A stretch of DNA of 64,000 nucleotides, taken from Minisyncoccota bacterium. Its GTDB lineage: Bacteria; Patescibacteriota; Minisyncoccia; Phycocordibacterales; GWA1-40-21. How positions within the stretch are numbered: position 1 is the stretch's first letter; each line of letters starts with the position of its first letter. The position numbers were made by a program, and so were the translations under genes. The DNA lies in NCBI GenBank assembly GCA_041659365.1, contig JBAZYH010000002.1:16065-80064 (forward strand), read 5' to 3'. Shown here in pieces: positions 14,027 to 59,779 of this stretch. The notes under the pieces are model-generated. The model made no database searches. It saw nothing but the letters and a program-made list of their open reading frames with translations, and was not told the DNA's origin.

Positions 14027-15544
14027 TTGGTGATAAAAGATTTTGAACTATTGATTTCTATTTTTGGATTTGTTTTGGCGATTTTTATTTCTTCTTTTTT
14101 AAAAATTGGTTTTTCTTTTTTCTTGTTTTTAATTTTAATTTCAATTGTATTTTTTATTTATCAAAAATTTATTTGTAATGATGAATTTGATAAAAAAAAT
14201 ATTTTAATAATATCACTTTTTATATTTTCTTTTGCACTAGGAATACTCAGATATGAAATAAAAGATTCTTATATATTAGATTCTAACTTAGAAAATAATT
14301 TAAATAAGAAACTTACAGTCGAAGGAATAATTTTTGATGAGCCTGTTGTGAAAGATGATGGGGCGACTTTAATAGTTGATTTTAAAAATATAATACTTGC
14401 GAGTTCAAGTGCAGCTGTCTCCGGAAGAGGAATTATAAAAACAGATACTTATCCAGAATTTAAATATGGTGACTTAGTAAAGGTTACAGGTAAACTTGAG
14501 AAGCCAGAAAATTATTCTTCTACAAGTTCAGAAAGATTCTTTGATTATGTTTCTTATCTTGGTAAAGATAATATTTTTTATAAAATAGATTTTGCAAAAG
14601 CAGAGTTTGTTTCTTCGGGCCATGGTAATTTTATAAAATCATTTTTATTTAAAATTAAAAATAGTTTTATTGGAAATATTAATCGTGTAATATCCGAACC
14701 ACAATCCTCACTTCTTTCTGGTATTTTGCTCGGATCAAGAAACTCGATAGATGAAAAAACTTCTGAAACATTTCGTATTGCGGGACTTTCACATTTGATT
14801 GCACTCTCCGGATATAATATAACTATAGTTTCAGAAGCTATTATGAAAATGTTTTCTTTTCTTCCGAGAAACTTTGGACTATCTGGTGGTGTACTTGGAG
14901 TGATACTTTTTGTCTTGATGTCCGGGTCTTCTTCTACAGCCGTTCGAGCAGGTATAATGTCGCTTGTTGTTATACTTGCAAATGTTACACGAAGAAAATA
15001 TCAGGTTACTAGAGCTTTAATATTTGCCGCACTTTTAATGATAATTATAAATCCAAAGATTCTTGTATTTGATATATCTTTTCAACTTTCCTTTTTGGCT
15101 ACTGTTGCCATTATTTATGTTTCACCGATTCTAAAAGAAAAATTTCACTTTGTTACAGAGAGGTTTAAATTGAGAGAAACTGTTTCATCTACTATATCTG
15201 CACAGATTTTAGTTCTTCCATTAATAATATATAAGATGGGTTTAGTTTCTATAGTTTCATTACCTGTAAACGTTTTAGTTTTAACTTTTATACCCACAAT
15301 AATGCTTCTTGGTTTTCTTACGGGGCTTTTTGGTTATGTATGGATTATTTTATCTATTCCGTTTGCTTGGGTAACTTGGTTTTTACTTAGTTATATTATA
15401 GAAGTTTCAGAATTTTTTGCTGGGCTACCTTTTTCACATACAGAAATTAATTTTTTCCCAGTGGTGTTTTTGGTCGTTTCATATGTGATTATTATTTTTT
15501 GGATTTTGTATGAACAAAATAAAATTAATAAAAAAGAAAAATAA
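14027..15544 (+). CDS. comEC: ComEC/Rec2 competence channel, N-terminal membrane (competence) domain only
   Basis: Polytopic membrane protein with the Competence-domain motif SGILLGSRNSIDEKTSETFRIAGLSHLIALSGYNIT. It lacks the MBL domain, which is encoded separately at 16006..16866. Confidence 0.75.
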   Translation: MVIKDFELLISIFGFVLAIFISSFLKIGFSFFLFLILISIVFFIYQKFICNDEFDKKNILIISLFIFSFALGILRYEIKDSYILDSNLENNLNKKLTVEGIIFDEPVVKDDGATLIVDFKNIILASSSAAVSGRGIIKTDTYPEFKYGDLVKVTGKLEKPENYSSTSSERFFDYVSYLGKDNIFYKIDFAKAEFVSSGHGNFIKSFLFKIKNSFIGNINRVISEPQSSLLSGILLGSRNSIDEKTSETFRIAGLSHLIALSGYNITIVSEAIMKMFSFLPRNFGLSGGVLGVILFVLMSGSSSTAVRAGIMSLVVILANVTRRKYQVTRALIFAALLMIIINPKILVFDISFQLSFLATVAIIYVSPILKEKFHFVTERFKLRETVSSTISAQILVLPLIIYKMGLVSIVSLPVNVLVLTFIPTIMLLGFLTGLFGYVWIILSIPFAWVTWFLLSYIIEVSEFFAGLPFSHTEINFFPVVFLVVSYVIIIFWILYEQNKINKKEK

Positions 15545-15604: not shown

Positions 15605-15892
15605 ATGGAAAAAATACCTTGTGTATATATACTTGCAAACAAAAGAAACGGAACTACTTATATTGGTGTAACTAGTAATTTAAAAAGAAGGATTTTTGAA
15701 CATAAAAATAATTTAGTGGATGGTTTTACAAAAAGATATAAAATTCACAATCTAGTTTATTATGAGACAGGAGATTCTATGGAAGGTGCGATAGAAAGAG
15801 AGAAACAAATTAAAAATTATTCAAGAGAAAAGAAAATATTATTGATTGAAGAGAATAATTCAGAGTGGAAAGATTTATCTTCTGAATTGTAG
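15605..15892 (+). CDS. GIY-YIG family nuclease
   Basis: CVYILANKRNGTTYIGVTSNLKRRIFEH is the GIY-YIG motif. It is inserted between the two ComEC halves. Confidence 0.7.
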   Translation: MEKIPCVYILANKRNGTTYIGVTSNLKRRIFEHKNNLVDGFTKRYKIHNLVYYETGDSMEGAIEREKQIKNYSREKKILLIEENNSEWKDLSSEL

Positions 15893-16005: not shown

Positions 16006-16866
16006 GTGATGAAACTAAATAAAAACATAAAATTATATTCCTTACTTTTTCTTATAATTATTAATATAATTATTTTTTATGCTGTATCTTTTGGTGACCA
16101 CAAAGGATTATTAAAAGTTACTTTTTTAGATGTTGGGCAAGGTGATTCTGTTTTTATAGAATCACCAGATGGAAATCAAATACTTATAGATAGTGGAGCA
16201 AACAAAAATATTTCAAATGTTTTATCTAGAGTAATGCCTTTTTATGATAGATCCATCGATGTACTAATTGCTACTCATCCAGATCAAGACCATATTGGTG
16301 GTTTTCCAGAGATTTTAAAAAGATATAAAGTTGGTAGATATTTTGATGATGGACTTGTAGGTGAGACAGCAACTTTCAAAGAAATCTCTTATAAACTTGT
16401 AGATGAAAAAATTAATGAGGAACGATTGATAAAAAATGAAATCCTAGATTTAGGAGATGGGGTATTTTTAAAAATATTTTATCCAAGTATAGAACTAGAA
16501 GGTAGTGATACAAATAAAAATTCTGTAGTAACGAAACTTATTTATGGTGATTCGAATATTTTACTTACTGGAGATATACCAACTGATGTAGAAAAATATT
16601 TAGCCATGACTGAGGGGAAAGAATTGAAAAGTGATATTTTGAAAGTTGCACACCATGGTTCTAGGAATTCTCTTTCAGAAGAATTCTTCTCCGCGGTTTC
16701 TCCTGAGTATTCAATAATTTCTGCTTCTAAAGATAATAGTTTTGGACATCCTCACAAAGAAATAATAGATGCTTTAAATAATATTGGTACAAATATTTTG
16801 AGGACTTATGAAATGGGGGATATAACTTTTGTTTCGGACGGGAATAAGTTTATATTAAAAAAATAA
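16006..16866 (+). CDS. ComEC C-terminal metallo-beta-lactamase domain protein
   Basis: N-terminal TM anchor, then LDVGQGDS...IDSG...THPDQDHIGG, the MBL HxHxDH motif typical of the ComEC nuclease domain. Confidence 0.7.
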   Translation: MMKLNKNIKLYSLLFLIIINIIIFYAVSFGDHKGLLKVTFLDVGQGDSVFIESPDGNQILIDSGANKNISNVLSRVMPFYDRSIDVLIATHPDQDHIGGFPEILKRYKVGRYFDDGLVGETATFKEISYKLVDEKINEERLIKNEILDLGDGVFLKIFYPSIELEGSDTNKNSVVTKLIYGDSNILLTGDIPTDVEKYLAMTEGKELKSDILKVAHHGSRNSLSEEFFSAVSPEYSIISASKDNSFGHPHKEIIDALNNIGTNILRTYEMGDITFVSDGNKFILKK

Positions 16867-19210: not shown

Positions 19211-19566
19211 GCAATACAATTTGCATTTTAGAACTTTTATGTTATTATCTCAACACATTATCTCGGTCGTGAGATATGTCGTTTTCAGGCAAAAGTGAGT
19301 AATCGATTTCAGTAGCTTTTAAAAAAGCATCTCAAACTGATCTCGGTGAAGAATTCACAATTGCCAAGTTAGAAAAATAAATTAGGCAAAAGATTATAAA
19401 TTTTATAACCTTGTTTATTTTTGTTTTTATTATTAGAAGTTTAAGGAGTGAAGGGATAATATTATTTTTTACCCCAGTGAAATATCTGCTAGACGCAGAT
19501 CAGAGCAGTAGCTCTATTTCACGGGGTGATGATTTTTATTGTCGCTTCGCTCTGTAAAAATCAATC

Positions 19567-19995
19567 ATGCCGACAATAAATCAGTTAATTAAACACAATA
19601 GAAAAACTGCTCCTAGAAAGCCAAAGTCAGTGGCTTTGATGAGAAGTTTTAACACATTGGAAAACAGACCAACAAAACTCTGTTCTCCATTTAAGAGAGG
19701 AGTTTGTATAAAGGTTACTACAAAGACACCTAAGAAACCTAACTCAGCTATCAGAAAGATCGCTAGGGTAAGACTTTCTAATGGTATGGAAGTTACAGCT
19801 TATATCCCAGGTATGGGACATAACTTACAAGAACACTCTGTTGTTCTTCTAAGAGGTGGAAGAGTTAAAGACGTAGGTCTTAGATATCAGGTTGTAAGAG
19901 GAGTTCTAGACGCAGGAGGAGTAGAAGGAAGAAGAAAGGGTCGTAGCCAATACGGTGCAAAGAAGCCAAAGGCAGGCGCTGTTAAAGCAAAGTAA
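19567..19995 (+). CDS. rpsL: 30S ribosomal protein S12
   Basis: [13 protein letters not shown]...PKKPNSA...RGGRVKDLPGVRY is classic uS12. Confidence 0.95.
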
Positions 19996-20088
19996 ATTTA
20001 AATAGATTAAGGATTCATGATTCAGGATTTAAGAATAAGAAATTATTTCATAAATCATGAATCTTAAATCATAAATCATCCTAAAATC

Positions 20089-20559
20089 ATGAGAAGAAAA
20101 ATTAAACCTAATAAACCGTTAAGATTAGACTACGAATATAAATCTGAAAAAGTTGCAAAACTTATAAATTATATTATGTATGACGGTAAGAAAAGCGTTG
20201 CAGAGAGAATAATCCACGATATGCTTGATATTATAAAAGAGAAGGGAAAGGTAAAAAATCCCATAGAAATACTCGAACTTGCTCTTTCTAATACAGCTCC
20301 AAACATGGAAATCAGATCAAGAAGAGTTGGGGGTGCAAACTACCAAGTTCCTGTAGAAGTTAGACCAACAAGAAGAGCTGCTCTTTCAATGAAATGGATT
20401 ATAGATGCAGCAAGATCAAAGAAAGGTGCTCCAATATCAGAAAAACTTGCTAATGAAATACTAGCAGCTTCAAAGAATGAAGGTGAAGCAGTAAAGAAGA
20501 GAGAAAATACTCATAAGATGGCTGAGGCTAACAAGGCCTTTGCTCACTTCGCCTGGTAG
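20089..20559 (+). CDS. rpsG: 30S ribosomal protein S7
   Basis: uS7 motifs: [12 protein letters not shown]..., [23 protein letters not shown]. Confidence 0.95.
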   Translation: [156 protein letters not shown]

Positions 20560-20749
20560 TATTTCATTATAATTTAACGACTTACTTCGTTGGTTGGTAA
20601 AATTTTTTCACGTGCAGTACATTTAAGTACAGCTTGCTCAAAAATTTTACCACCGCCTCGTAATTCATTTAAATTATAAAGAAATTCATTAGAGTGAAGT
20701 TGAAGAGTATAAACTATTTTAGAATTTATTAATTTAATTGTTATTATAA

Positions 20750-22912
20750 ATGAAAAGAGATTATCCATTAGAAAAAGTAAGAAATTTTGGAATTATTGCG
20801 CACATTGATGCGGGTAAAACTACAACTTCAGAAAGAATTCTCTACTACACTGGTAAAAACCATAAGATCGGTGAAGTTCACGAAGGTGAAACTACAACTG
20901 ACTGGATGGAACAAGAAAGAGAAAGAGGTATTACTATATGTTCAGCTGCTATTACTTGTTTTTGGACACCTACACATGTAGTTGATAAAAAAAATACAGA
21001 TCTTAAAATAAGATTCAATATTATTGATACCCCCGGCCACATCGACTTTACTGCAGAAGTTAAGCGTTCTCTCAGAGTGCTTGATGGAGCTGTTGTTGTA
21101 TTTGACGGAGTTGCTGGTGTTGAACCACAATCAGAAACAAACTGGAGATATGCTGATGAAGGAAAAGTTCCAAGACTTTGTCTTATAAACAAACTAGATA
21201 GAACTGGAGGAAGTTTTGAAAGATCATACCAATCAATTTTAGAAAGACTTACAAAAGCTGCTGTAAGAATGCAACTTCCTATTGGAGCTGAATCAGATTT
21301 CAACGGAATAATAAGTCTTATGGAAATGAGAGCTTACTATTTTGATGGTGAAATGGGAGATCATATAAGAGAAGAAGAAATTCCAGCAGATCTTTTGGAA
21401 GAAGCAAAGAAATATAGAATGGAGCTTGTAGAAAAAATTGCTGAGCAAGATGAGGTCCTTATGAATGATTATCTTGAAGGAAAAGAAATCGGAATTCCTG
21501 ACCTTAAGAAAGTTTTGAGAAAAGCAACAATTGATAATACAATTGTTCCTGTGTTTATAGGTTCTGCTTTGAAAAATAAAGGAATTCAATTAGTGCTTGA
21601 TGGTGTTGTTGACTATCTTCCATCTCCACTTGATATTCCTGCTGTAAAAGGTATAGATCCAAGAAATGGAGAAGAAGTTTTGAGACATGCTTCAGACGAA
21701 GAACCTTTTTGTGCTCTCGCTTTTAAACTTCAGAACGATCCATTCGTAGGTCAGCTTACATATTTTAGAGTTTATTCTGGTAGTATTTCTTCTGGTACAT
21801 ATATTTACAATTCTACAACTGGTGAAAAAGAAAGACTAGGAAGAATTGTTCGTATGCATGCAAATGATAGGGAAGATGTTGAAACAGTTTTTGCTGGAGA
21901 AATCGCAGCTGCTGTAGGTCTTAAAGGAGTAAAGACAAGTCACACACTTTGTGATGAAAGCAACCCAATACTTCTTGATCAAATCGTATTCCCAGAGCCA
22001 GTTATTACTTTGAGAGTTGAACCAAAGACAAAAGCAGACCAAGAGAAAATGGGATTTGCTTTGAAGAAACTTTCAGATGAAGATCCAACATTTAAAATAA
22101 AATCTGATCCAGAGACAGGCGAAACTGTTATGGCTGGTATGGGAGAGCTCCACCTTGAAATTCTCGTAGATAGAATGAAGAGAGAATTCGGAGTTGAGGC
22201 AAACGTTGGTAAACCACAGGTTGCTTATAAAGAAACTATTACTGGAGAAGCTGAAAAAGAAGAGAAATACATTAAGCAGTCTGGAGGTAAGGGTCAATAT
22301 GGTCACGTTCTTATTAAAATCAGACCTATGCAACCTCTTGAAGAGGGTGCAAAGATTCCTAAGAATGTTAGCAGATATGATGACTTTGAATTTATTAACT
22401 CTATTAAAGGAGGTGTTATTCCAAACGAATTTATTCCTGCGGTTGAAAAAGGAGTAAAGGAAAGTATGGAAAGAGGTATTCTTGCTGGTTATAAAGTTGT
22501 GAATGTTTCTTGTGAGCTTACATTCGGTTCTTACCATGATGTTGACTCATCAGAAATTGCTTACAAAGTTGCAGCTTCTATGGCTTTTCAAGATGCAGCA
22601 AAGAGAGCAAGACCTGTTATTCTTGAGCCTGTCATGAAGGTTGAGGTTGTTACACCAGAGAAGTTCATGGGAGACGTTTCTGGAAGTATTAACTCAAGAA
22701 GAGGTCAAATAATTGAAATGTTTGATAGAGGAATGAACAAAGTTATTAAAGCAAATGTTCCTCTTTCTGAAATGTTTGGTTATGTTACAACACTTAGATC
22801 ACTTTCTGAGGGAAGAGCTTCATCTACTATGGAATTTGGAAGCTACGAAGTTGTTCCACCAAATGTCGCTAAAGAGATTATTGAAGCACGTGGTACAGCT
22901 CCAGTGAAATAA
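20750..22912 (+). CDS. fusA: elongation factor G
   Basis: AHIDAGKTTTSERIL, DTPGHIDFT, and the full five-domain length of 720 aa. Confidence 0.95.
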   Translation: MKRDYPLEKVRNFGIIAHIDAGKTTTSERILYYTGKNHKIGEVHEGETTTDWMEQERERGITICSAAITCFWTPTHVVDKKNTDLKIRFNIIDTPGHIDFTAEVKRSLRVLDGAVVVFDGVAGVEPQSETNWRYADEGKVPRLCLINKLDRTGGSFERSYQSILERLTKAAVRMQLPIGAESDFNGIISLMEMRAYYFDGEMGDHIREEEIPADLLEEAKKYRMELVEKIAEQDEVLMNDYLEGKEIGIPDLKKVLRKATIDNTIVPVFIGSALKNKGIQLVLDGVVDYLPSPLDIPAVKGIDPRNGEEVLRHASDEEPFCALAFKLQNDPFVGQLTYFRVYSGSISSGTYIYNSTTGEKERLGRIVRMHANDREDVETVFAGEIAAAVGLKGVKTSHTLCDESNPILLDQIVFPEPVITLRVEPKTKADQEKMGFALKKLSDEDPTFKIKSDPETGETVMAGMGELHLEILVDRMKREFGVEANVGKPQVAYKETITGEAEKEEKYIKQSGGKGQYGHVLIKIRPMQPLEEGAKIPKNVSRYDDFEFINSIKGGVIPNEFIPAVEKGVKESMERGILAGYKVVNVSCELTFGSYHDVDSSEIAYKVAASMAFQDAAKRARPVILEPVMKVEVVTPEKFMGDVSGSINSRRGQIIEMFDRGMNKVIKANVPLSEMFGYVTTLRSLSEGRASSTMEFGSYEVVPPNVAKEIIEARGTAPVK

Positions 22913-22971
22913 AAAGAATATTGAATAGTGAATGTAGAATATAGGATAATAAAATACAAACACAAAAAAAG

Positions 22972-22998
22972 TACGCCCCAATGGGGCGCGCTTTTTTT
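22972..22998. terminator. rho-independent terminator after fusA
   Basis: cgcccc-aat-ggggcg followed by a T-run. Confidence 0.5.
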
Positions 22999-23071
22999 GT
23001 GTTTGTATTGCTTAATAAATATTGAGGGGTATAATTACTTGGTGTAATTTACAAGCTAATATTAATTAATA

Positions 23072-23881
23072 ATGAAAAAATATTTTCTAGGTTTGTTTTG
23101 TCTCCTTACATTTGCTTCAGTATTTTTTGTTGGAGTAAATAGTTCTTATGCATTAGTATCTGGGGCTAATACAAAATATGACTTTAATAAAGATGGTAAG
23201 ATTGACATAAGAGATGTTCAGGATATTTCTGAGGTCATTGATCAAAAAGACAACTCTGCTGACTTTGATCTAAATAGTGATAATAAGGTTGATATAAAAG
23301 ATTTGAAAATTCTCAGAGCTAAAGCAGGTGCCTCACAGTTCGATTTCAACAGAGACGGTAGAGTTGATATTAAAGATGTTCAGGATATTTCTGAGGCTAT
23401 TGATCAAAAAAACAACTATGCTTACTTTGATCTAAACAGTGATGGAAAAGTTGATATAAAAGATTTAAAAATTCTTAGGGCCAAAGCGGGTGTCTCACAG
23501 TTTGATTTCAACAGAGACGGTAAAGTTGATATTAAAGATGTTGATGATATTTCTGAGGCTATTGATCAAAAAAACAACTATGCTTACTTTGATCTAAACA
23601 GTGATGGAAAGGTTGATATAAAAGATTTAAAAATTCTTAGGGCCAAAGCGGGTGTCTCACAGTTTGATTTCAACAGAGACGGTAAGACTGATGTTGAAGA
23701 TGTTGATGATATTTCTGAGGCTATTGATCAAAAAAACAACTATGCTTACTTTGATCTAAACAGTGATGGAAAAGTTGATATAAAAGATTTGAAAATCTTA
23801 AAATCAAAAGTTAAGACCCTTGGTGTGAGTCAATCTTTAGTTTCAAAAATAATGGCTAGTGTTTTAGAAGCATTTAAATAG
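23072..23881 (+). CDS. secreted dockerin-like (Ca-binding) repeat protein
   Basis: Signal peptide followed by eight DxNxDGK(V/I)D(I)xD dockerin/EF-hand-like segments. The DNA is four near-identical tandem repeats of about 183 bp (about 23300-23810). Confidence 0.65.
   Translation: MKKYFLGLFCLLTFASVFFVGVNSSYALVSGANTKYDFNKDGKIDIRDVQDISEVIDQKDNSADFDLNSDNKVDIKDLKILRAKAGASQFDFNRDGRVDIKDVQDISEAIDQKNNYAYFDLNSDGKVDIKDLKILRAKAGVSQFDFNRDGKVDIKDVDDISEAIDQKNNYAYFDLNSDGKVDIKDLKILRAKAGVSQFDFNRDGKTDVEDVDDISEAIDQKNNYAYFDLNSDGKVDIKDLKILKSKVKTLGVSQSLVSKIMASVLEAFK
23300..23810. repeat. four tandem repeats of about 183 bp inside the dockerin-like gene
   Basis: Near-identical units, each encoding FD(F/L)N(R/S)DG(K/R)VDIKDV..ISEAIDQKNNYAYFDLNSDGKVDIKDLKILRAKAG. 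Confidence 0.6.
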
Positions 23882-24213
23882 ATGAAGTTATTGAGCTTTT
23901 AAAACTTTTAAAGTAAAGGAAAGATATAAAAATAGGGCTACCTTTGGTAGCCCTATTTTTATATTTGGAAATCAACTTTCTGATGTTGACCTTTTGTGCT
24001 TCTTTTGCTATTATTCGAGATACGCATTTTGTGCGCTTTTTAGTTTATTATTAATTTAAAAAAAAGACTAAAAAACACGAGTTGCAAGTCGTAATTTTAT
24101 AAGTTTCCCAGTTCGCCTGTAGGTGAATGATGGGAGTTAATCAAATTAGCTGGTTTTATGGGCAGAGAGAGCGTTCTCGCGCGTTCTGTTTATAGAATCA
24201 GCAAAAAATAAAT

Positions 24214-25416
24214 ATGGCAGAATTTTTAAGAGACAAACCACACGTAAACGTTGGTACAATTGGTCACATTGACCACGGGAAGACAACATTGACTGCAGCT
24301 ATTACTTATATACAGTCATTGAAAGGTTTAGCAAATCACATCGCTTACGATCAAGTTGCTAAGGCTTCTGAAAGTGCTGGTAGAAGAGATTCCACAAAAA
24401 TCATTACTATCGCAATTTCTCACGTTGAATATTCATCAGATGCAAGACACTATGCTCACGTTGACTGTCCTGGTCACGCTGACTATGTTAAGAACATGAT
24501 TACTGGTGCTGCCCAAATGGACGGTGCTATACTCGTTGTTTCTGCAGTTGATGGCCCTATGCCACAAACAAGAGAACACATACTTTTGGCAAAACAAGTT
24601 GGTGTGCCAAAGATAGTAGTATTCTTAAACAAAGTTGACCTAGTCGACGATGCAGATCTTTTGGATCTTGTCGAAGTTGAAGTTAGAGAACTTTTGACAA
24701 AATATGGTTTTGATGGAGACAATGCTCCTATTGTTAGGGGTTCTGCTACTGGTGCTCTTGCATGTAAGAGTCCAGATGAACCAGGTGCAAAATGTATTGC
24801 AGATCTTTTGACTGCTCTTGATACATACATTCCTATGCCAGAAAGAGATATCGATAAGCCTTTTCTTATGCCTATTGAAGATATCTTCTCAATTGAAGGT
24901 AGAGGAACTGTTGTTACTGGAAGAATTGAGAGAGGACAAATTAAAGTTGGTGAAGAAGTAGAAATCGTTGGTATTAGAGCAACTGCAAAAACTATCGTTA
25001 CTGGTATTGAAATGTTTAATAAACAACTTCAATCTGGTATGGCTGGTGATAATGCTGGTCTTCTTCTAAGAGGTACAAAGAAAGAGGATGTTACAAGAGG
25101 TCAAGTTTTAGCAAAAATTGGTTCAGTTACTCCTCACACAGACTTTGAAGCTGAAGTTTACGTTTTGAAGAAGGAAGAAGGTGGAAGACACACTCCATTC
25201 TTCTCAGGTTACAAACCACAATTCTATATGAGAACTACAGACGTTACAGGAGATGTTACTCTAGCAGAAGGTGTTGAAATGGTTATGCCAGGAGATACAG
25301 TTACTTTTAAAGTTAAACTTGTTGCCCCAGTTGCTATTGAAGACAAGATGAGATTTGCTATCAGAGAGGGGGGAAAAACAGTCGGTTCAGGAGTTATAAC
25401 AAAAGTTATAGCGTAA
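24214..25416 (+). CDS. tuf: elongation factor Tu (with an atypical switch-I segment)
   Basis: [31 protein letters not shown], and the C-terminal beta-barrel domains are all present. Switch I reads [20 protein letters not shown] instead of the canonical [13 protein letters not shown]. Confidence 0.95.
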
Positions 25417-25526
25417 GAAAATAACGAGCGTAGCGAATATCCCAGTACCACAACTTTACTGAAAGGTAAAGTTGGCTACGGGACAAGTATTTTCTACTTG
25501 TAATTCGTTCTGTTCATTAAAAATCA

Positions 25527-36596: not shown

Positions 36597-38015
36597 TTAC
36601 TTCGTCAGTATTGCCGTCCCTGTTTTGTTTTTGTAGTAGGTATATGAAAGGTTGACTGTCCTGTTGAAACAATCTGCCGGAGGGATTTCGCCAGTAGACG
36701 GATCAACTGTGTCACTTGAAAAAACAAAAGTCATATTGATTGAGAGTTTTGTCTTGACCATGGGGTTTGTTAATCCATAGTTGGCTAAGGCTTCAGCAAA
36801 TACACATTTAGGATAGGTTATTGACCATTTCCCTAGTTTTGCTGAACCAGCCGCTCTCTCAGATATTTTAAAAACACTGCTGTTGTTTGTATTCAAAGAT
36901 GAGATATCTGTAACCCCATCGAGAAACACACGTGCCGAAGTGAACTTAATATCCTTTGGAACAAGTACCGATCCGGAGAAGCTGATATAGTCGCTGTTTG
37001 TCTTGGCGAAGTTCAGCTTAACGGAAGTACTTGTAAGTTCAAAGAACATCGATTCGGGACACCATGTTGGCCAACAAGAGAAGTAGGGGTTTGAAGACAC
37101 CCCGTTGACTACTTCTTGAATACCCAGAACTTCTCCGTTTTCGTTTATATCGGCAGAAAAGATCCGGTACATCACCTGATAAGTACCGTCGTAATACGAT
37201 CCGGTATACTCGTAAGTGGTGTACAAAATCTTTGTTCCTTCCGGGTTTACGAAAGCTTCTTTCGCGTCACCCAGCTGGCTGAGAAGTTTTGCTTCTTGAC
37301 CAGGAACTAGATAATACGCTCCGCTGTAACTCGAAACGACGAAGCGACTATCATAGCTCATTGAAAGCCGATTGGCAGATATATACAATGATTTATCGGC
37401 CGAATATGGAACTGGACTAGGCACAACACCGTGATTTTGAGGGGTTCGGATGTAGATATGAATACCGTTATATCCGTTGATTGCCGAATATCCGATATCC
37501 TTATTTTCCTTTGTTAAACCCCAACAAGCATATCCATCGGCTGATAGAGCAAGACCATAACCTGGCCCAACTCGTCCACTTGAAGAATAGCTTAGTCGAG
37601 AACTTCCAGTACGATTTGACTGATAGAATGTACCCGTGTGAAAGGCAGATACTATCGGCATTTCGTCATTGGAGGAACCATAAGGATCCCGCGTTGTTTG
37701 TTGTGTTGTGTATCCGCCCATCCATTTGCTATAGAATAACCTTTGGCCGTGAGACCCGCTTGTCTCCGTTTTGTCGTACCACAGGTATTTTCCATTTACG
37801 AACGGATGGCCAAAGTTGATCTTTTGGCTTGCCAGCTGAGTAGCTAACACAATTTTTGTACCGGGGTTGTAAGAGTCTGCTCTGTAGAGAGCATTCCCGT
37901 CAGTAAAGACGATCCAGTGATCTTCTGCTTTACCGATAGTGGCGATCATAACGAACGCACACACACATAGAGCAATGATAGCTTTGATAGCTTTCATTTT
38001 TTTGTCCTTGGGCAA
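36597..38015 (-). CDS. secreted hypothetical protein, Tyr/Ser/Gly-rich (beta-rich fold likely)
   Basis: Signal peptide MKAIKAIIALCVCAFVMIATIGKA. High GC. No catalytic motif recognised. Confidence 0.5.
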   Translation of the reverse strand: MPKDKKMKAIKAIIALCVCAFVMIATIGKAEDHWIVFTDGNALYRADSYNPGTKIVLATQLASQKINFGHPFVNGKYLWYDKTETSGSHGQRLFYSKWMGGYTTQQTTRDPYGSSNDEMPIVSAFHTGTFYQSNRTGSSRLSYSSSGRVGPGYGLALSADGYACWGLTKENKDIGYSAINGYNGIHIYIRTPQNHGVVPSPVPYSADKSLYISANRLSMSYDSRFVVSSYSGAYYLVPGQEAKLLSQLGDAKEAFVNPEGTKILYTTYEYTGSYYDGTYQVMYRIFSADINENGEVLGIQEVVNGVSSNPYFSCWPTWCPESMFFELTSTSVKLNFAKTNSDYISFSGSVLVPKDIKFTSARVFLDGVTDISSLNTNNSSVFKISERAAGSAKLGKWSITYPKCVFAEALANYGLTNPMVKTKLSINMTFVFSSDTVDPSTGEIPPADCFNRTVNLSYTYYKNKTGTAILTK

Positions 38016-39998: not shown

Positions 39999-40026
39999 AG
40001 GTGGAGATGGCGCGAATCGAACGCGC
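39999..40026 (-). other. orphan tRNA 3' fragment (T-arm GCGCG-TTCGATT-CGCGC + acceptor CATCTCC-A-CC), likely an att-site remnant
   Basis: A perfect T-arm and acceptor 3' strand are present on the minus strand. No matching 5' half (GGAGATG) was found in the adjacent sequence read. Confidence 0.45.
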
Positions 40027-40189
40027 GTGCAAATGATTGTTCCCAATGCTTCTACAAAGTATAGTTTGTTTAGTTTCGCCCGAAAGCGAATTTAAAATTA
40101 TAGACTATAAATAAACAAAACATCTATAATTCGATTCTCTAATTTTCTTTGTGTATCGAGAAGGTACACAATATATCCTGAAAATATAT

Positions 40190-40262
40190 CACCCTAAAAC
40201 ATTTTGTAAACAAAATGTTCGGGCGATCAATTTTTGTATTAACAAAAATTGATTTAGCCCCA
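40190..40262. repeat. 75-nt direct repeat (CCCTAAAACATTTT..GTTCGGGCGATCAATTTTTGTATTAAxAAAAATTGATTTAGCC), copy 1
   Basis: Shares its 5' module with family 2 and contains the palindrome atcaattttt..aaaaattgat. Second copy at 40468..40540. Confidence 0.5.
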
Positions 40263-40467
40263 ACAGCTTATCAGAAATAGGCTGCTAGTGTGTCGCTTAG
40301 GCTAAAGCGTAAGCGAAAGTAAGGTCCTTGGTACCAAAAAATGGTGACACAATGCCAGCTACTTTTGAAGAAATGCTATTTGCATTTGAAGTTCCTTGAT
40401 AGATTTAAGAGTTCACAAGGTTGCTCTACTTTGCGCAAGAGAGAACGGGACCAAATGTCTAGGCCGA

Positions 40468-40540
40468 TCATCCCCCTAAAACATTTTTTACTAAAAATGT
40501 TCGGGCGATCAATTTTTGTATTAATAAAAATTGATTTAGC
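40468..40540. repeat. 75-nt direct repeat, copy 2
   Basis: ccctaaaacattttttactaaaaatgttcgggcgatcaatttttgtattaataaaaattgatttagcc. Confidence 0.5.
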
Positions 40541-40822: not shown

Positions 40823-41269
40823 CTATTCGTTTTTCAATGTTCTTCTTATCTCTCGGTCAGATTCGCGTTTCTTGATAGATTCGCGTTTATCTTTATTCTT
40901 CTTACCTCGAGCTAAGCCAAGCTCTACTTTTAGCTTATGCCCCATATTATACACCGATAATGCTACTATTGTCAAACCATTTTGATTTTCTGTGCCGGCA
41001 AGCCTTTTAAGCTCCTTTTTGGTAAGCAAGAGTTTTCTATTTCTTCGTGGATCGTAATCTTGAGGTGTGTTTTTAGGTTGAAGGGGAGTAATACCAGCTC
41101 CTATAAGAAAGGCTTCATTTCCTCGAATTGTCGCATAAGCCCCATCAAGTGTTATTCGCCCAGCTTTTATTGCTTTAACTTCAAAACCGAGTAGCTCAAT
41201 ACCAGCCGTGATTTTTTCAAGGATTTCATAATTAAAATATGCTTTTCTGTTTTCTGCAAAATTTGCCAT
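40823..41269 (-). CDS. smpB: SsrA-binding protein SmpB
   Basis: NRKAYFNYEI..E.GIEL.G.EVKAIK.G...L..AYA.I..NEAFL......PL.P. matches the SmpB family, with a basic C-terminal tail. Confidence 0.85.
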   Translation of the reverse strand: MANFAENRKAYFNYEILEKITAGIELLGFEVKAIKAGRITLDGAYATIRGNEAFLIGAGITPLQPKNTPQDYDPRRNRKLLLTKKELKRLAGTENQNGLTIVALSVYNMGHKLKVELGLARGKKNKDKRESIKKRESDREIRRTLKNE

Positions 41270-41652: not shown

Positions 41653-41958
41653 TTTATCTCCTCCTTCTTTTTGTTTTGTTTCCTATCCAAAAAAAATATT
41701 AAACTATTAAATAATAAAAGTCAATAGTATTTTTTAGAACATTACTTAAGCTTTTAGAACAGCTTGACAAATATTTTAAAACATGTATTATGTTATGCAG
41801 ATTATTGTGTTCGTTGACGTTCACATTTAACCTATTAGTTTCAAATTTTAAACGAAAGGAGGCTTAACCGAAAGGATAAGTCACTAGTTTGGTGTTTGTC
41901 GATGTTTGTTGAAGGTATCAAAAACGTTTCAAGTTCAAATCTCAAAAGGAGAATCAGA

Positions 41959-43686
41959 ATGAAGAAGTTGTCCAAGTTGTTCGTGACCTTACTGGTTGGC
42001 GTTTTTGCCCTCCAGACACAGGCAGTGTCCTATGTGAAGTCGGCACCTCTCTCGGAGGTGGTCGGGACTCGGGTTGGTTTGGTTCAGGATGGTGCTGTGC
42101 AGGAACTGCCCATCATCACCTGGGGTGGCGATATCGCTACCATCGTTGCGAACGGTAATCAGGTCAACACGGCGGTCGGCAGCCTCTTCGACAAGGAGGG
42201 GTTGAAGTTTAAGATTGTCCGTGAGGACGTCTTTCCGAAACAGTTGGAAGGCTACATCAGTGGGAAGACCCCGTATTTGCGGGGAACCGTTGGTCAGATC
42301 AACATGGCCCTCGAGCTCCTGTCGAAGGATCCTCGAACCAAGCCGGTTGTTGTTTACACTCTCACCAGGTCAGTTGGAGGAGATTGCCTTGCTGTAAAAC
42401 AGGGGATCAATACGATCAAAGACTTGAAGGGAAAGACTATTGCAGTCAATGCATACAGCCCTCATGTGGAATTCCTCGGAACGGTGCTCGATAGTGCCGG
42501 GCTGATGATGACCGATGTGAAGATTGTGTGGACAAAAGATTTGACTGGTTCGAAGGAAACTCCGGGCCAAGCATTTCTCAGTGATCCGACTGTCGATGCG
42601 TGTTTTGCTATCTCACCTGATGCCAATGCTTTAACGAGCGGTGGCAAAGTGGGAGATGGATCCGAGGGCTCTGCAAAGGGTGCTCGAATTCTCTTTTCAA
42701 CAAAGACAGCAAGTAACGTGATTTATGACGTTTATGCTGTACGCGCCGATTATCTGGCCTCACACCCTGATAACGTTGCGAAGTTCGTCCATGCTTTGCT
42801 TATGGCAGAAGAGAATCTGTCCTTGCTCATGGGAAATTCGAGTACGCGAAAGGCGGAGTACGACAAAACACTGGCGGCGGCTGGAAAGATTATTCTCGAC
42901 AGTGAACAGGCGACAGGTGATATCATTGGTTTGTATGGTGATTGCGAATATGTTGGCTACGTGGGGAACATCAAGTTCCTTGCTACACCGACGGAAGTTC
43001 GTCGCCTCGAAACCTTGTCGTCTGAAATCCAGGAAGCGTTTATCGGTCTTGGGTTGTTGTCTGGTAAGGCGGAGCTTGCGAAAGCAGGTTTTGATTATGA
43101 AGCTCTGAAGAAGGGCTTGATCAAGACAGTTGCTGTGGTGGCTCCGAAATTCCAGGCGGCCGAAGTCGCGAAGGTTATTGATCAGAAGTCGAAACAGGGA
43201 GACAGTGGCTCCATTTTCAGCTTCGAAATCCTGTTCAGCCCAAATCAGAATACATTTAACTCTGAGTTGTATAAGGCAGATTTCGATCGTGCAATCGAAC
43301 TCGCAGCCACATACGGTGGAGCGATTCTCACAATCGAAGGACATGCTGATCCGATGCAATATATCGACAAGAAAGCGGCGAATGCACCCGAGCTGGTGCT
43401 TTCACGTCTTCGTCAGTCGGCAAAGAATCTTTCGTTGACGCGAGCAATCGCTCTACGCGAGAGTCTTCTCAATTATGGCAAACTGAAGATGGTCATTATG
43501 GACCCGTCGCAGTTTGCCGTAGTTGGTCACGGCTTTGAGAAACCGAAAACCGGCCTCAAGAATGGTGAGCCTGTTCGTCCGAAAGATCAGCAGGAGTGGG
43601 CATCGAACATGCGAGTCGTGTTCGAGTTAATTCCTGTTGGTGAAGTGGAGTCCCAGGTGTTTACGCCGGCAGGAGGTGGAAAATGA
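41959..43686 (+). CDS. secreted fusion protein: NMT1/SsuA-like periplasmic-binding domain + C-terminal OmpA-like domain
   Basis: Signal peptide MKKLSKLFVTLLVGVFALQTQA with an aaaggag SD. GKTIAVNAYSPHVEF.. is SBP-like. The C-terminal ILTIEGHADP...NLSLTRAIALRESL...VVGHGFEKP is an OmpA/MotB C-domain motif. Confidence 0.55.
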   Translation: MKKLSKLFVTLLVGVFALQTQAVSYVKSAPLSEVVGTRVGLVQDGAVQELPIITWGGDIATIVANGNQVNTAVGSLFDKEGLKFKIVREDVFPKQLEGYISGKTPYLRGTVGQINMALELLSKDPRTKPVVVYTLTRSVGGDCLAVKQGINTIKDLKGKTIAVNAYSPHVEFLGTVLDSAGLMMTDVKIVWTKDLTGSKETPGQAFLSDPTVDACFAISPDANALTSGGKVGDGSEGSAKGARILFSTKTASNVIYDVYAVRADYLASHPDNVAKFVHALLMAEENLSLLMGNSSTRKAEYDKTLAAAGKIILDSEQATGDIIGLYGDCEYVGYVGNIKFLATPTEVRRLETLSSEIQEAFIGLGLLSGKAELAKAGFDYEALKKGLIKTVAVVAPKFQAAEVAKVIDQKSKQGDSGSIFSFEILFSPNQNTFNSELYKADFDRAIELAATYGGAILTIEGHADPMQYIDKKAANAPELVLSRLRQSAKNLSLTRAIALRESLLNYGKLKMVIMDPSQFAVVGHGFEKPKTGLKNGEPVRPKDQQEWASNMRVVFELIPVGEVESQVFTPAGGGK

Positions 43687-44426
43687 AGAAAAGTTTTCCG
43701 CTTGTCTGTTGCTTCGTCGCCATGTGCCTTGTTTCGGCCTGTGGTGATGGGGGTAATGTGTCCAGTCAACAGACTGGGCAGGCTGGTGTTTCTCTATCGG
43801 TTAAGTCCGCTGTGAAATACACATGGCTCGATCAGAGTGCTTCGAAGAGCAGTGCCTTGGATGAGAACCTTCTTCGGAAGAATATCTACCTGGTGCTTGA
43901 CTGCTCAAGCAGTATGGCCGAGTCATGCGGTGGTGGGAAGACGAAGATTAATGCAGCCAAGGAGGCGATCAATCGTTTCGTCAGTCTGATTCCGGAGGAT
44001 ACGAACCTCGGATTCCTTACGTTCGAGTTTTCGGATGTTCAGGAAAAAATCCCATTGGGAATAGGAAACCGTAAGGAGTTGATCACAGCGGTCAACCGCC
44101 CAGCGGCAAATGGTTCCACGCCACTAAGTAAGGCAGTGGAAATGGGTTATGAGAAACTCCGTGAGCAAGCCTTAAAACAGCTTGGTTATGGCGAATACCA
44201 CCTTGTGGTTATGACCGACGGTGAAGCAAATCCTGGTTGTGACCCTGGGAAAATCGTCGACAAAATCCTGAAAACATCACCGGTGGTGATTCATGCCATT
44301 GGGATTAATATTGGGAGCGGACACAGTCTCAATCAGCCTGGAAGAACGATCTATAAGGATGCACAAAATCCGAAAGATCTGGAAGATGGGTTGGCGGAGA
44401 TTGCTGCCGAGTCGGAGAAATTCTAG
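43683..44426 (+). CDS. vWA-domain lipoprotein
   Basis: Lipobox LVSAC. MIDAS motif: DCSSSM...GSTPL...VMTDGEAN. ATGA overlap with the upstream gene. Confidence 0.7.
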   Translation: MKKSFPLVCCFVAMCLVSACGDGGNVSSQQTGQAGVSLSVKSAVKYTWLDQSASKSSALDENLLRKNIYLVLDCSSSMAESCGGGKTKINAAKEAINRFVSLIPEDTNLGFLTFEFSDVQEKIPLGIGNRKELITAVNRPAANGSTPLSKAVEMGYEKLREQALKQLGYGEYHLVVMTDGEANPGCDPGKIVDKILKTSPVVIHAIGINIGSGHSLNQPGRTIYKDAQNPKDLEDGLAEIAAESEKF

Positions 44427-44451
44427 TCGGTTAAATGTGAACAAATAGTGC

Positions 44452-44490
44452 GAGCCCCCTCCAGTATATCTGGTAGGGGGCTTTCTTTTT
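44452..44490. terminator. rho-independent terminator
   Basis: gagccccctccag-tatat-ctggtagggggctttcttttt. Confidence 0.55.
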
Positions 44491-44574
44491 GTCTGCTATT
44501 GACAAAATAGTTATTTCATGTATATTTAGGGTTGTTGTTATTTGATATCAAAACGAAAAGCAAGGAGAAAAAGG

Positions 44575-46149
44575 ATGAAAAAAGGTACGGTATTACCGGT
44601 ACTGTTTATGATTATTGTTTTGGTGGGAGTGTTTTCTTACAAAGGGATTCTTCCTCACTTGAAAAACAAGCAACAGAAACAGACGAGTGATTCGAAAGAT
44701 CTCAAGGGGGAAATCTCTTTGGCGATCGATAACTGGATCGGGTATTTTCCCGTCAGTTCTTCTCGGATGAAGAAGTATCTGAGAAGTGAAGGATATGGCC
44801 TTAAGGTTACAGATGACGGCGCGGACTATGCGAGTCGTATGAAAAATCTTAAGGACAGGAAGTACGACTTTGTCGTGGCTACTGTTGATTCGGATATTTT
44901 GAATTCTGCGCCACTCGATTTTCCGGGCACCATTATGATGGTAATCGATGAATCAAAAGGTGCAGACGCTATGGTGGCATACACCAATGTTGTCTCAAGT
45001 CTCGATTCATTTAAGGAGAATCTTCAAGTGAAGATTGGATTCACTGCTGGTTCTCCGAGTCACCATTTGGTGAAGATTGTTGCCTCGCACTTTAGTGTGC
45101 CAGGTTTGAAGAAGTTGGATGGCGCTCATAAGGTTGAGACGAAAGACTCAGACGAAGCATTCAAATTATTCCGTGAAAAAAAAGTTCAGGTTGCTGTGCT
45201 TTGGGAACCGAACGTTTCAAGGGCACTCAAGCTACCTGGTGTAGGGAAGATCATTGGGTCTGAAAGTATCAGTCGAGGTATCGTCGATGTGCTCATGGTT
45301 AACCGTGAGTTTGCATTGAAGTATCCTGAAAAAGTGAACCTTTTCCTTCGGACGTATTTTCGGGTGTTGAAGTTTTATGCTGATAACCCGGAAGATTTGA
45401 AGAAGGACATTCACTCTGAGCTCAAGATTCCTGTGGATTCAATCCCACAAATGCTTGACGGTGTACGTTGGGTAAATCTAACGGAAAACTGTCAGGAATG
45501 GTTCGGAGTAGGTGGTCCTGGTCAGACGTCTGAACAGGGACTGGTGGATACGATCGAGTCTACGGTTTCAATTCTTATTGAGAGTGGTGATTTTAAAGAA
45601 AACCCTCTCCCAGATAAAGATCCTTATCGTATTATTAACAGTAGTTTTGTTTCCTCAATCTACAAGGACGGTGTCAAAACCGGTTTTGCAAGTTTGGAGA
45701 CAGGGGCTACTGGTGCGGTTGTGGGTATTGGTTTGGACCGTCCTTTCAAACAGTTGACGGACGCGCAGTGGGATAGGCTTCGGTCAGTAGGTAGTATCCG
45801 CGTTGACCCGATTATGTTTCAAAGTGGTCTTGCTGACTTGACGATTTCGGAGAAGGAGAAGCTTGATTTGGCGGTAAGCCGTCTCAAGCATTATCCAACA
45901 TTCCGGATTAAGGTTAGTGGGCATACTTCGTCTTCGGGTGATCCTGAGGCGAACGTAGAATTGTCACAAGCAAGGGCTGACTCTGTCGCTCGGTATCTCA
46001 TGATTACTTACAGTGTTGATCAAAATCGCATTAGGTCTGTTGGGTTTGGTGGCAGTAGGCCACTTTCAAAATTGCCTGATGAATCAGATCGCGCTTACGG
46101 GTATCGTCTGCCGAGGGTTGAGCTTTGCCTTTTTGCTGAGACGTTTTGA
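44575..46149 (+). CDS. membrane-anchored fusion protein: SsuA/NMT1-like binding domain + C-terminal OmpA-like domain
   Basis: N-terminal TM anchor. The C-terminal RIKVSGHTSSSGDPEANVELSQARADSVARYL...VGFGGSRPL is an OmpA C-domain. Same architecture as 41959..43686. Confidence 0.55.
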   Translation: MKKGTVLPVLFMIIVLVGVFSYKGILPHLKNKQQKQTSDSKDLKGEISLAIDNWIGYFPVSSSRMKKYLRSEGYGLKVTDDGADYASRMKNLKDRKYDFVVATVDSDILNSAPLDFPGTIMMVIDESKGADAMVAYTNVVSSLDSFKENLQVKIGFTAGSPSHHLVKIVASHFSVPGLKKLDGAHKVETKDSDEAFKLFREKKVQVAVLWEPNVSRALKLPGVGKIIGSESISRGIVDVLMVNREFALKYPEKVNLFLRTYFRVLKFYADNPEDLKKDIHSELKIPVDSIPQMLDGVRWVNLTENCQEWFGVGGPGQTSEQGLVDTIESTVSILIESGDFKENPLPDKDPYRIINSSFVSSIYKDGVKTGFASLETGATGAVVGIGLDRPFKQLTDAQWDRLRSVGSIRVDPIMFQSGLADLTISEKEKLDLAVSRLKHYPTFRIKVSGHTSSSGDPEANVELSQARADSVARYLMITYSVDQNRIRSVGFGGSRPLSKLPDESDRAYGYRLPRVELCLFAETF

Positions 46150-46172
46150 TTAATAGTGGTGGTTGTGTGCTG

Positions 46173-46207
46173 TGGCCCGTTTCCTTTCGAGGAAACGGGC
46201 CACTTTT
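46173..46207. terminator. rho-independent terminator
   Basis: tggcccgtttcc-tttcga-ggaaacgggcca followed by a T-run. Confidence 0.55.
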
Positions 46208-46391
46208 ACTTTAGCGAAAGTATGTCGCGCAATCGTCCATTGAAGTGCGACGAAAACTAATAGACAGTATCCTTATTATGAGTTGTATTTAATAGTTTAT
46301 GTCACCCTTGACAAAAACTTTAAATATGATATCAATCATGCAGAAGTATCTTTGTAAAAACGTTGAATAAACAGAAAAAGGAGAACAGATA

Positions 46392-48041: not shown

Positions 48042-48248
48042 GATATCTGTGCTCTGAAATAAGTCGCATCCGTTCCGAAAGGGCGGGTGCGATTTTCTTT
48101 TATTTTCCTTTTTTACTTATAGACATTTTTTAATATTAATTATCTAATTTATGCTCTTGACAAAATCTTTAATTCGTGTATAGTACTATACAGATGAAGT
48201 CCTTTGAAAACTTCATGTAAAAACTAAGGAAAAAAGAGAAAGGGATTT

Positions 48249-49094: not shown

Positions 49095-49130
49095 ACAAAA
49101 AAACTCATTCTCAAGAAAGGGAAAAAGAGT

Positions 49131-50345: not shown

Positions 50346-50434
50346 TCCGGCGTTCAAGATTCATGAACTCCCCAGGGGCACAGTGCCCTTGGGGAGATTA
50401 TCACCAAAAAGAAACAAGAAAGAGAGAGCGTTCA

Positions 50435-51499: not shown

Positions 51500-51756
51500 G
51501 AAGAGTCTCGCTGACTGATGCAAAACAACAAACCTCTTCGGAGTCCTTAGGGATTCTGGAGAGGTTTTTTCATGTTCAAAATATGTTAAAAACACATAAA
51601 TACATGAATATATTTTGTAATACTTTTAAGACTCTTTACATATTGACATTTCTATTATTTCATGTATACTTGATAATAGGAAATTGTTAAGGGCAGGGTC
51701 TTCGATCCTGTTTTTTGAAAACTTTGTAACAAACAAAAAAAGAGAAGGAATTCAGA

Positions 51757-52602: not shown

Positions 52603-52610
52603 GGAGTTTA

Positions 52611-53549: not shown

Positions 53550-53581
53550 TTCCTTCGGATGGAACTGTTTGTTGCGAGTAC

Positions 53582-53619
53582 GTCCCCCACTTTAGCGAAA
53601 GCTAAGGTGGGGGATTTTT
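53582..53619. terminator. rho-independent terminator at the right edge of the GC-rich island
   Basis: gtcccccactttagc-gaaa-gctaaggtgggggattttt. Confidence 0.6.
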
Positions 53620-59753: not shown

Positions 59754-59779
59754 GTTTAAGTAAATTATTTGACGGATAA

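Follow-up and report, generated by a model that had tools for sequence, protein, structure and literature searches.

A predicted secreted tetra-dockerin protein encoded in the variable fusA-tuf interval of a Patescibacteria genome

Introduction

What is a gene for a dockerin-repeat protein doing between the genes for two translation elongation factors, and what could its product connect? The question is raised by a 64,000-nt stretch of contig JBAZYH010000002.1 (assembly GCA_041659365.1) from a Minisyncoccota bacterium, referred to below as the window, in which an open reading frame (ORF) at 23072-23881 on the forward strand separates fusA, encoding EF-G, from tuf, encoding EF-Tu. The genes rpsL and rpsG lie upstream, followed by fusA, the dockerin gene, tuf and then rpsJ, rplC, rplD, rplW and rplB. 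A preliminary description of this DNA had read the ORF as a secreted dockerin-like protein placed inside the str operon. Taking the dockerin identity and the genomic status of the gene together, we regard both as very probable. The best explanation overall, to which we assign a probability of about 0.5, is that the locus is a lineage-specific cassette for an exported tetra-dockerin connector.

Results

The gene and its dockerin modules

The ORF at 23072-23881 is a real gene. It is the sole ORF of at least 50 aa overlapping that interval, with 810 bp encoding 269 aa, which bears out the earlier claim of a single ORF inserted between fusA and tuf. Its GC content (31.6%) and its GC content at third codon positions (GC3, 23.3%) are similar to those of the adjoining genes. 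The predicted layout comprises a signal peptide, four back-to-back type-I dockerin modules, which take up 216 of the 269 residues, and a short C-terminal tail (Table 1). The predicted mature protein has ~242 aa and a mass of ~27 kDa, with an isoelectric point (pI) of 4.66 and an Asp content of 18%.

The presence of dockerin modules was investigated using sequence profiles. In Pfam, the best match was Dockerin_1 (PF00404), with 70.2 bits compared to a gathering score of 22.9. This profile matched four stretches, each nearly over the whole model, and the best stretch covered profile positions 2-53 of 57. EF-hand Pfam profiles also matched, at the loops (e.g., EF-hand_5, 52.6 bits). Each module contains two duplicated segments of ~22 residues, in which a 12-residue Ca loop (ligands 1, 3, 5, 9 and 12) is followed by a helix. 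The eight Ca-binding segments proposed in the preliminary description are all intact, as every loop fits the pattern DxNxD(G/N)xxDxxD and keeps D1, N3, D5, D9 and D12. The four window modules were aligned with 22 dockerin modules cut from the first homologues (alignment A1), and D6, D10, G11, D17, D35 and D46 were invariant across 25 aligned modules. The module profile matched solved dockerins over 49-52 of 54 positions with E-values of 2e-11 to 1e-7, including CelS, CelD, Xyn10B (1OHZ), Cel5A (2VN5) and NagH (2OZN), whereas EF-hand proteins were matched at a single loop only.

Structural modeling pointed the same way. An AlphaFold2 model of residues 86-146, built with alignment A1, had a predicted local distance difference test score (pLDDT) of 91.3 and a predicted template modeling score (pTM) of 0.77. 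When this model was compared to the PDB with Foldseek, the top 11 matches were all dockerins, with template modeling (TM) scores of 0.58-0.72 and a root-mean-square deviation (rmsd) of mostly 1.8-3.4 Å, whereas EF-hand proteins reached a TM score of at most 0.31 with an rmsd of ~10 Å. For so tiny a domain, the Foldseek E-values were weak, and it is the TM scores that separate the dockerins from the EF-hand proteins. The module as modeled has a predicted dockerin fold, distinct from a canonical EF-hand pair. The PF00404 score, the module profile and the structural matches agree with one another and with the earlier assignment of the protein as a dockerin. A generic or canonical EF-hand protein was rejected as a candidate, given the one-loop profile match and the poor structural match.

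The N-terminus consists of MKK, an 18-residue hydrophobic core and SYA, and it is the sole hydrophobic segment of the protein. A helix was placed at residues 3-22 in the low-confidence full-length model. The signal peptide call is heuristic and the cleavage site was placed by eye; on these terms the N-terminus resembles a signal peptide, in keeping with the secretion claimed earlier. The 17-residue C-terminal tail is possibly an amphipathic helix, as judged from the same model. It was not found as a general motif among relatives. The tail SQSLVSKIMASVLEAFK is loosely like the C-terminus of one protein only (P0002, ...SYLASVGEAFSNFF...), which has 359 aa and a tandem dockerin pair with a junction matching the short one in the window protein (G.NQYDFN).

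Profiles above threshold were of the dockerin and EF-hand types, plus FG-GAP_3 on two short stretches. Searches of Pfam, NCBIfam and PHROGs found no catalytic, cargo, anchoring or other domain in the 269 aa, and NCBIfam, PHROGs and Rfam returned nothing meaningful for the dockerin gene or its flanks. A cellulosome component was also considered and rejected, given that the protein has no catalytic or carbohydrate-binding cargo and that the 64-kb window contains no cohesin or glycoside hydrolase.

The tandem repeat array

Tandem Repeats Finder identified one array at 23191-23800, with a period of 162 bp, 3.8 copies, 92% matches and a score of 967. This period corresponds to 54 aa, which is one whole dockerin module, and the linkers between modules are ~3 residues long. 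A repeat unit of about 183 bp had been described previously; both Tandem Repeats Finder and the protein register give 162 bp instead. The preliminary description also had four almost identical repeats. Four tandem units are present, but near-identity is limited to units 2 and 3, which show 4 differences in 162 nt (97.5% identity). Units 1 and 2 share 82.7% DNA identity, and unit 4 shares exact central runs of 76 and 83 nt with units 2 and 3 (at shifts of 162 and 324), while both of its ends are diverged. Between units 1 and 2, 14 of the codon differences are synonymous and 10 non-synonymous, which indicates apparent purifying selection on real coding sequence.

Units were also compared with those of P0226, the best array-wide homologue described below. 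They group by protein: units 2 and 3 of the window protein are 96% identical and units 2 and 3 of P0226 are 94% identical, compared to 42-56% between the proteins, with a faint positional signal in the end units. Clustering of this kind is typical of concerted evolution in tandem arrays. The recent expansion or recombination suggested earlier is supported to the extent that the inner repeats show recent homogenisation or duplication in the unit comparison.

The fusA-tuf interval in relatives

The EF-G of the window is 74-76% identical to that of Patescibacteria metagenome-assembled genomes (MAGs) labelled Kaiserbacteria, Adlerbacteria, Paceibacterota and Minisyncoccia. These Patescibacteria/Paceibacteria relatives of fusA identify the organism as a Paceibacteria member of the Candidate Phyla Radiation (CPR), the type proposed earlier. 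The EF-Tu relatives are closer than the EF-G ones, with up to 94% identity. An exact-sequence look-up of the dockerin protein, EF-Tu and EF-G returned no record, and a look-up of RpsL returned only short contigs of ~90% DNA identity that stop inside fusA.

No dockerin gene was found near fusA in 80 GTDB loci using tblastn. In the GTDB set, non-CPR bacteria with tuf after fusA have 37-203 bp between the two genes, and Patescibacteria loci have between 92 bp and >6 kb. A same-strand ORF of at least 100 aa directly after fusA carried an export-like N-terminus in 17 of 32 loci of the Patescibacteria set. In the relatives tested, such ORFs combined PG_binding_1 with a signal peptide, and Ig-like, PKD, TIG or cupredoxin domains often came next; in other loci, the ORFs were pilin-like.

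Four close relatives were informative for the junction itself. The gap is 342 bp and holds no gene in L165 (EF-Tu 94%), which shares gene order with the window over 15 kb, and the same is true of the 346-bp gap in L171 (EF-Tu 89%). In L168 (EF-Tu 90%) the gap holds a 273-aa Exo_endo_phos gene, and in L170 (EF-Tu 90%) a 975-aa envelope protein with no Pfam match. The dockerin gene is absent from all four. The operon had been called otherwise universal in the preliminary description, which had also counted absence of the insertion from even the closest relatives against its own reading; the junction proved variable in this lineage, and such absence is what was found. On this comparison, the dockerin gene is apparently lineage-specific and lies in a slot that varies among relatives.

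The break-points were located with blastn, which aligned L165 3302-6655 with window 19550-22913 and L165 6751-8207 with window 23978-25420. The gained material proper spans ~23010-23977. The close relatives share the position of the fusA terminator as well as the tuf promoter and leader. The junction would therefore already have been a transcription-unit boundary, which would explain why the slot tolerates insertions.

Neither an integrase, a transposase, a phage family nor a clear target duplication was found near the gene, and PHROGs gave weak matches only, mostly to families of unknown function. A mobile-element or phage origin was rejected given the missing integrase and transposase, the weak PHROGs matches and the host-like composition. 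An 18-nt imperfect direct repeat (83% identical, copies 997 bp apart) occurs at 22995-23012 (TTTTGTGTTTGTATTGCT) and 23992-24009 (TTTTGTGCTTCTTTTGCT). Its copies bracket the cassette and overlap both promoter-like regions; they may have arisen by chance in AT-rich sequence or may be left over from the recombination event that brought in the cassette.

Three independent short contigs (L166, L167 and L169; EF-Tu 93-94%) stop 98-274 bp 5' of tuf and are uninformative about the content of the gap. Their ends would fit repeats or strain variation breaking assemblies at the slot, while proving nothing. In more distant Patescibacteria, a conserved ORF of ~90-140 aa was observed directly 5' of tuf, with a start of the form M..QLK..I.L.KKTGDR.I.F., e.g., MSKQLKQVINLAKKTGDRIIVFD (loci L029, L030, L039, L040, L043, L054, L057, L059 and L062).

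Transcription signals around the dockerin gene

Terminator-like hairpins follow both fusA and the dockerin gene (Table 1). For the first, 0 of 200 shuffles folded as well, and the terminator scan lists it on both strands. In L165 and L168, a hairpin stands at the same post-fusA position with another stem sequence and with kept flanks, AAATACAAA...TTTGTATT. The second hairpin, with its T-run, accords with the gene's own terminator, claimed previously at 23925-23960. Between the first hairpin and the dockerin gene lies a promoter-like element with a perfect TATAAT 36 nt 5' of the ATG, which was also found by the -10 search; a second, weaker -10 candidate (TAATAT) is located at 23056-23061. The element was not listed in the consensus scan because its -35 hexamer, TTGCTT, matches at 3 of 6 positions only. 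We infer that 23008-23035 probably acts as the promoter of the dockerin gene. Ahead of tuf is a promoter-like element of its own, which is conserved in L165, L167, L170 and L171.

With strong hairpins on both sides, the dockerin gene would be insulated on both sides, and the hairpins, its own TATAAT and the tuf promoter make the three genes look like separate transcription units, as far as sequence can indicate. The earlier suggestion that expression is coupled to the translation-factor operon was therefore not upheld, given the post-fusA hairpin of -32 kcal/mol, the gene's own TATAAT, the second terminator and the conserved tuf promoter and leader. Functional membership of the str operon was rejected at the level of sequence prediction, based on the terminators between the genes and the absence of the gene at this position in relatives.

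The tuf leader, ~200 nt long, is strongly conserved among relatives with an EF-Tu identity of at least 89%. Copies were taken from L165 (6795-7000), L167 (81-274), L168 (6800-7000), L169 (1-166), L170 (6806-7000) and L171 (6775-7000). The alignment supports three helices; they comprise 38 pairs, with pairing in 93.6% of cells. Compensatory changes were observed at 11 pairs, compared to 4.4 ± 1.4 pairs after shuffling and 1-5 pairs in slid controls. Against Rfam, the E-value scan gave nothing credible and no family reached its gathering score, and the leader motifs were not found in more distant relatives. This region is a candidate for a new cis-regulatory leader RNA in a Paceibacteria clade.

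Start-proximal signals were also examined across the window. In its low-GC parts (1-41500 and 55700-64000), 26 of 51 genes have a hexamer resembling the -10 consensus (TATAAT matched at 5 or more of 6 positions) that ends 4-13 nt 5' of the start codon, and 10 of these 26 have an upstream TG. All eight genes with a Shine-Dalgarno motif sit in the GC-elevated 36-40 kb region or the GC-rich island. From this pattern, mRNAs with no leader or almost none would seem to be widespread in the organism.

Homologues and the poly-dockerin class

A word-indexed homologue search returned 15 weak matches, none above 31% identity. Relatives from a metagenome scan mostly had a single module and in no case adjoined fusA or tuf, and the module-profile search recovered short proteins only, one of which was labelled Patescibacteria. 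When 1.84 billion representatives were searched exhaustively with phmmer, 1045 matches had E ≤ 0.001, 92 of them reaching 1e-10 and 8 reaching 1e-30. The best array-wide match, P0226 (595 aa), is 50% identical over query residues 28-248. Its four-dockerin array is C-terminal and is preceded by a signal anchor, PG_binding_1 and an unknown domain, and its contig has a GC content of 33%. P0225, P0228, P0229, P0231 and P0232 consist solely of 5-7 tandem dockerins behind an N-terminal anchor.

Among the best 150 representatives, 47 have at most 500 aa, at least three modules and at least 45% of their length covered. Dockerin_1 was found in 88 of the 92 relatives of at most 640 aa, GH5 in two and PG_binding_1 in two. 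Small poly-dockerin proteins lacking other domains are therefore a populous class, based on the layout count and on the prevalence of Dockerin_1 with little else. The window protein has the same layout, with a hydrophobic N-terminus and at least three tandem modules forming most of the protein. In the literature searched, no description of small poly-dockerin proteins as a class was found. Judged by these comparisons, the window protein is a new member of a common, uncharacterised poly-dockerin class.

Table 1. Coordinates of the dockerin gene, its modules and the flanking features in the window.
Feature	Position	Strand	Remarks
fusA (EF-G), upstream neighbour	20750-22912	+	720-aa ORF; EF-G identity 74-76% to Patescibacteria
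Segment without alignable L165 counterpart	22914-23977	.	1064 bp vs. 95 bp (one terminator hairpin) in L165
Terminator-like hairpin after fusA (A-tract, GC stem, T-tract)	22957-23005	+ (both strands)	Free energy (dG) -32.1 kcal/mol, z -9.07
Promoter-like element of dockerin gene: TTGCTT (23008-23013), 16-nt spacer, TATAAT (23030-23035)	23008-23035	+	Sequence reading
Tetra-dockerin protein gene, predicted secreted	23072-23881	+	ORF; Pfam Dockerin_1 in four stretches
Predicted Sec signal peptide, residues 1-27, MKKYFLGLFCLLTFASVFFVGVNSSYA	23072-23152	+	Hydrophobic window, Kyte-Doolittle 2.5
Dockerin module 1, residues 37-90	23180-23341	+	Second loop: N replaces G at position 6
Dockerin module 2, residues 91-144	23342-23503	+	Module modeled by AlphaFold2 (residues 86-146)
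Dockerin module 3, residues 145-198	23504-23665	+	97.5% DNA identity to module 2
Dockerin module 4, residues 199-252	23666-23827	+	Centre as units 2/3; first loop and last helix diverged
17-residue C-terminal tail SQSLVSKIMASVLEAFK	23828-23878	+	Helix 254-268 in low-confidence model
Terminator-like hairpin after dockerin gene	23922-23966	+	dG -28.9 kcal/mol, z -6.95; 19-nt arms 100% complementary
tuf promoter-like element TTGACC-17-TATTAT	23986-24014	+	10/12 matches, with TG
tuf 5' leader, conserved, apparently structured	24020-24213	+	Helices 24023-24035, 24105-24136, 24149-24202
tuf (EF-Tu), downstream neighbour	24214-25416	+	94% identical to P0016

Other features of the window

A GC-rich island was observed at ~41900-53600, with 43-51% GC compared to ~31% elsewhere, and its genes carry Shine-Dalgarno motifs. 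It encodes NMT1/OmpA, VWA lipoprotein, OmpA, AAA ATPase, TelA and ABC-type proteins and adjoins smpB (40823-41269, - strand) and the transfer-messenger RNA (tmRNA) gene (39999-40475, - strand). The 36-40 kb region is also GC-elevated, at 39-41%. The GC-rich DNA near the tmRNA gene was probably acquired horizontally. In the GC-elevated stretch by the tmRNA gene, the ORF at 36597-38015 (- strand) encodes 472 aa with a signal-peptide-like N-terminus, and neither a Pfam family nor a sequence relative in the PDB was found for it.

ComEC is seemingly split across 14027-15544, 15605-15892 and 16006-16866, with one ORF for the Competence and DUF4131 domains and another for the metallo-beta-lactamase part. 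Read by eye, the N-terminus of the 95-aa ORF between the parts resembles a GIY-YIG nuclease motif. L165 and L171 share the split, as judged from the two outer parts.

Discussion

In the reading preferred here, the dockerin gene is a self-contained cassette that brings along both a -10 element and a terminator and is set between the fusA terminator and the tuf promoter. After export, the four modules would fold around Ca2+, with two loops each and eight sites in total, and the folded protein would act as a multivalent protein-protein connector. Its partner could be a cohesin-type or another beta-sandwich protein, present either on the cell's own envelope or on a host, and by engaging several copies of this partner the connector would cross-link or decorate the surface concerned. 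Unequal crossing-over or gene conversion would keep the inner repeats alike, and through this exchange the module number could change. This multivalent-adaptor mechanism is put forward tentatively, with odds that we place at even or a little below.

Several observations weigh against the connector. The signal peptide and the promoter were both assigned by inspection, and a protein without a recognisable anchor may simply diffuse away. The -35 element of the gene is weak (3/6) and there is no Shine-Dalgarno motif, although the latter objection is weakened by the fact that such motifs occur in 8 of 58 window genes and in none from native low-GC sequence. The single-sequence AlphaFold2 model of the whole protein had a pLDDT of 36, and the relative arrangement of the modules is unsupported at that value. 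No cohesin was found among the 20 secreted, membrane or unknown proteins in the 64-kb window, and two orphan secreted proteins of the window had no credible PDB relatives (no match for one and a single match with E 0.8 for the other). A cohesin domain was present in only 1 of the 92 related small poly-dockerin proteins.

The same scarcity of cohesins, in the window and among the 92 relatives, favours a role that needs none, in which the product would bind Ca2+ or serve as a structural protein outside the cell. Its acidic and basic helices might attach it directly to the wall, S-layer, glycans or a host surface, or it might act as a buffer or store of envelope Ca2+. The eight Ca sites of the mature protein and its composition (18% Asp, pI 4.66) suit this role, as do related arrays fused to PG_binding_1 wall anchors rather than to enzymes, and host glycans have been raised, as speculation, for a dockerin envelope protein of a Saccharibacterium (PMC10633639). 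On the other hand, fold and profile match bona fide cohesin-binding dockerins over the whole length, the literature searched yielded no ligand other than cohesin for a type-I dockerin, and the absence of cohesins covers 64 kb only. We consider a cohesin-independent role unlikely, but it is the main rival to the connector.

Two further explanations concern the locus more than the protein. The gene lies on the same strand as fusA and tuf and between them, and some read-through of intrinsic terminators is always possible, so that a cohesin-bound attachment protein might be co-expressed with the str operon and track translation-factor expression. Such coupling seems improbable in view of the strong T-run hairpins on both sides, the gene's own TATAAT, a tuf promoter and leader that are conserved even where the slot is empty, and the absence of the gene from all relatives examined. 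That absence, together with the lack of a close homologue on record, would also suit a neutral or decaying passenger, or a repeat assembly artefact, with no function; tandem repeats are prone to mis-assembly, and the short contigs of three relatives end just 5' of tuf. But the ORF and all eight Ca loops are intact, synonymous differences between units outnumber non-synonymous ones, the composition is host-like and the flanks are colinear with those of relatives up to the break-points. The units also differ enough (83-97%) to assemble, and P0226 has a homologous four-module array. A passenger or artefact is accordingly very improbable.

A bolder proposal, which we also regard as improbable, is that the fusA-tuf boundary in Paceibacteria is a dedicated display slot in which surface or host-interaction genes are swapped. 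The tetra-dockerin protein would there be a soluble linker bridging cohesin-like receptors of symbiont and host, with a valency tuned by the 162-bp repeats. In such a slot, the tuf promoter and structured leader would come after a strong terminator, and the genes repeatedly swapped in would be self-contained.

Dockerins are among the few recognisable surface protein-protein plugs of CPR bacteria, and one dockerin protein was essential in the only transposon sequencing (Tn-seq) study of a cultivated CPR member (PMC10633639). A 27-kDa protein built solely from four plugs would be a simple bait with which to look biochemically for the socket, whether on symbiont or host. Since its flanking genes are universal, the fusA-tuf junction is easy to find in every MAG, and the slot could be a quick look-up place for strain-specific surface genes. 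The variable slot and the conserved tuf leader RNA may be more reusable observations than the gene itself. If the product is merely another uncharacterised Ca-binding repeat protein, little changes.

The closest known modules are the cellulosomal type I dockerins, such as those of Clostridium thermocellum Xyn10B (1OHZ) and CelS and of C. cellulolyticum Cel5A (2VN5), which share the duplicated 22-residue segment with a DxNxDGxxDxxD loop and then a helix. The predicted fold of the window module compares to them with TM scores of 0.6-0.7 and an rmsd of 1.8-3.4 Å. In cellulosomes, a single C-terminal module on an enzyme plugs into a cohesin scaffoldin, whereas the window protein has four in tandem and no enzyme. 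Positions 10-11 of the dockerin loop are Ile-Lys in the window protein; they are Ser-Thr in C. thermocellum dockerins. The NagH dockerin of C. perfringens (2JNK/2OZN) was the best single-sequence match among PDB dockerins (E 0.002; Foldseek TM 0.69) and exemplifies a dockerin outside plant-cell-wall degradation. NagH has one module on a large toxin/enzyme and a cohesin partner, NagJ; the window protein is unlike it in having no cargo and no partner found.

Among ultra-small bacteria, repeated dockerins are shared with the Dockerin-type giant proteins of Omnitrophota, which carry many dockerin repeats and for which host or prey attachment has been proposed (West-Roberts et al., bioRxiv 10.1101/2023.11.21.568195). 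Those giants exceed 30,000 aa, are membrane-anchored and contain TSP3, discoidin and enzyme domains, whereas the window protein has 269 aa and dockerins only. In Southlakia epibionticum, a cultivated CPR epibiont, the dockerin-domain envelope protein SEML1_0315 was essential by Tn-seq (Wang et al. 2023, PMC10633639), and the same authors speculated that it targets host glycans. This likeness is by domain name only, and SEML1_0315 differs in belonging to a Saccharibacterium, another CPR class.

The uncharacterised metagenomic poly-dockerins (P0226, P0225, P0228-P0232 and P0349) are alike in having an N-terminal signal peptide or anchor, 4-7 tandem modules with a period of ~54 aa and few other parts. 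None was seen in a fusA-tuf context, and P0226 adjoins dinB. P0226, P0230 and P0233 carry a PG_binding_1 wall anchor and others a membrane anchor, whereas the window protein has neither. P0226 resembles it most closely, with a four-module array at 50% identity in which the inner units appear homogenised too. Some dockerins may help to structure the cell surface (Rincon et al. 2010, PMC2930009).

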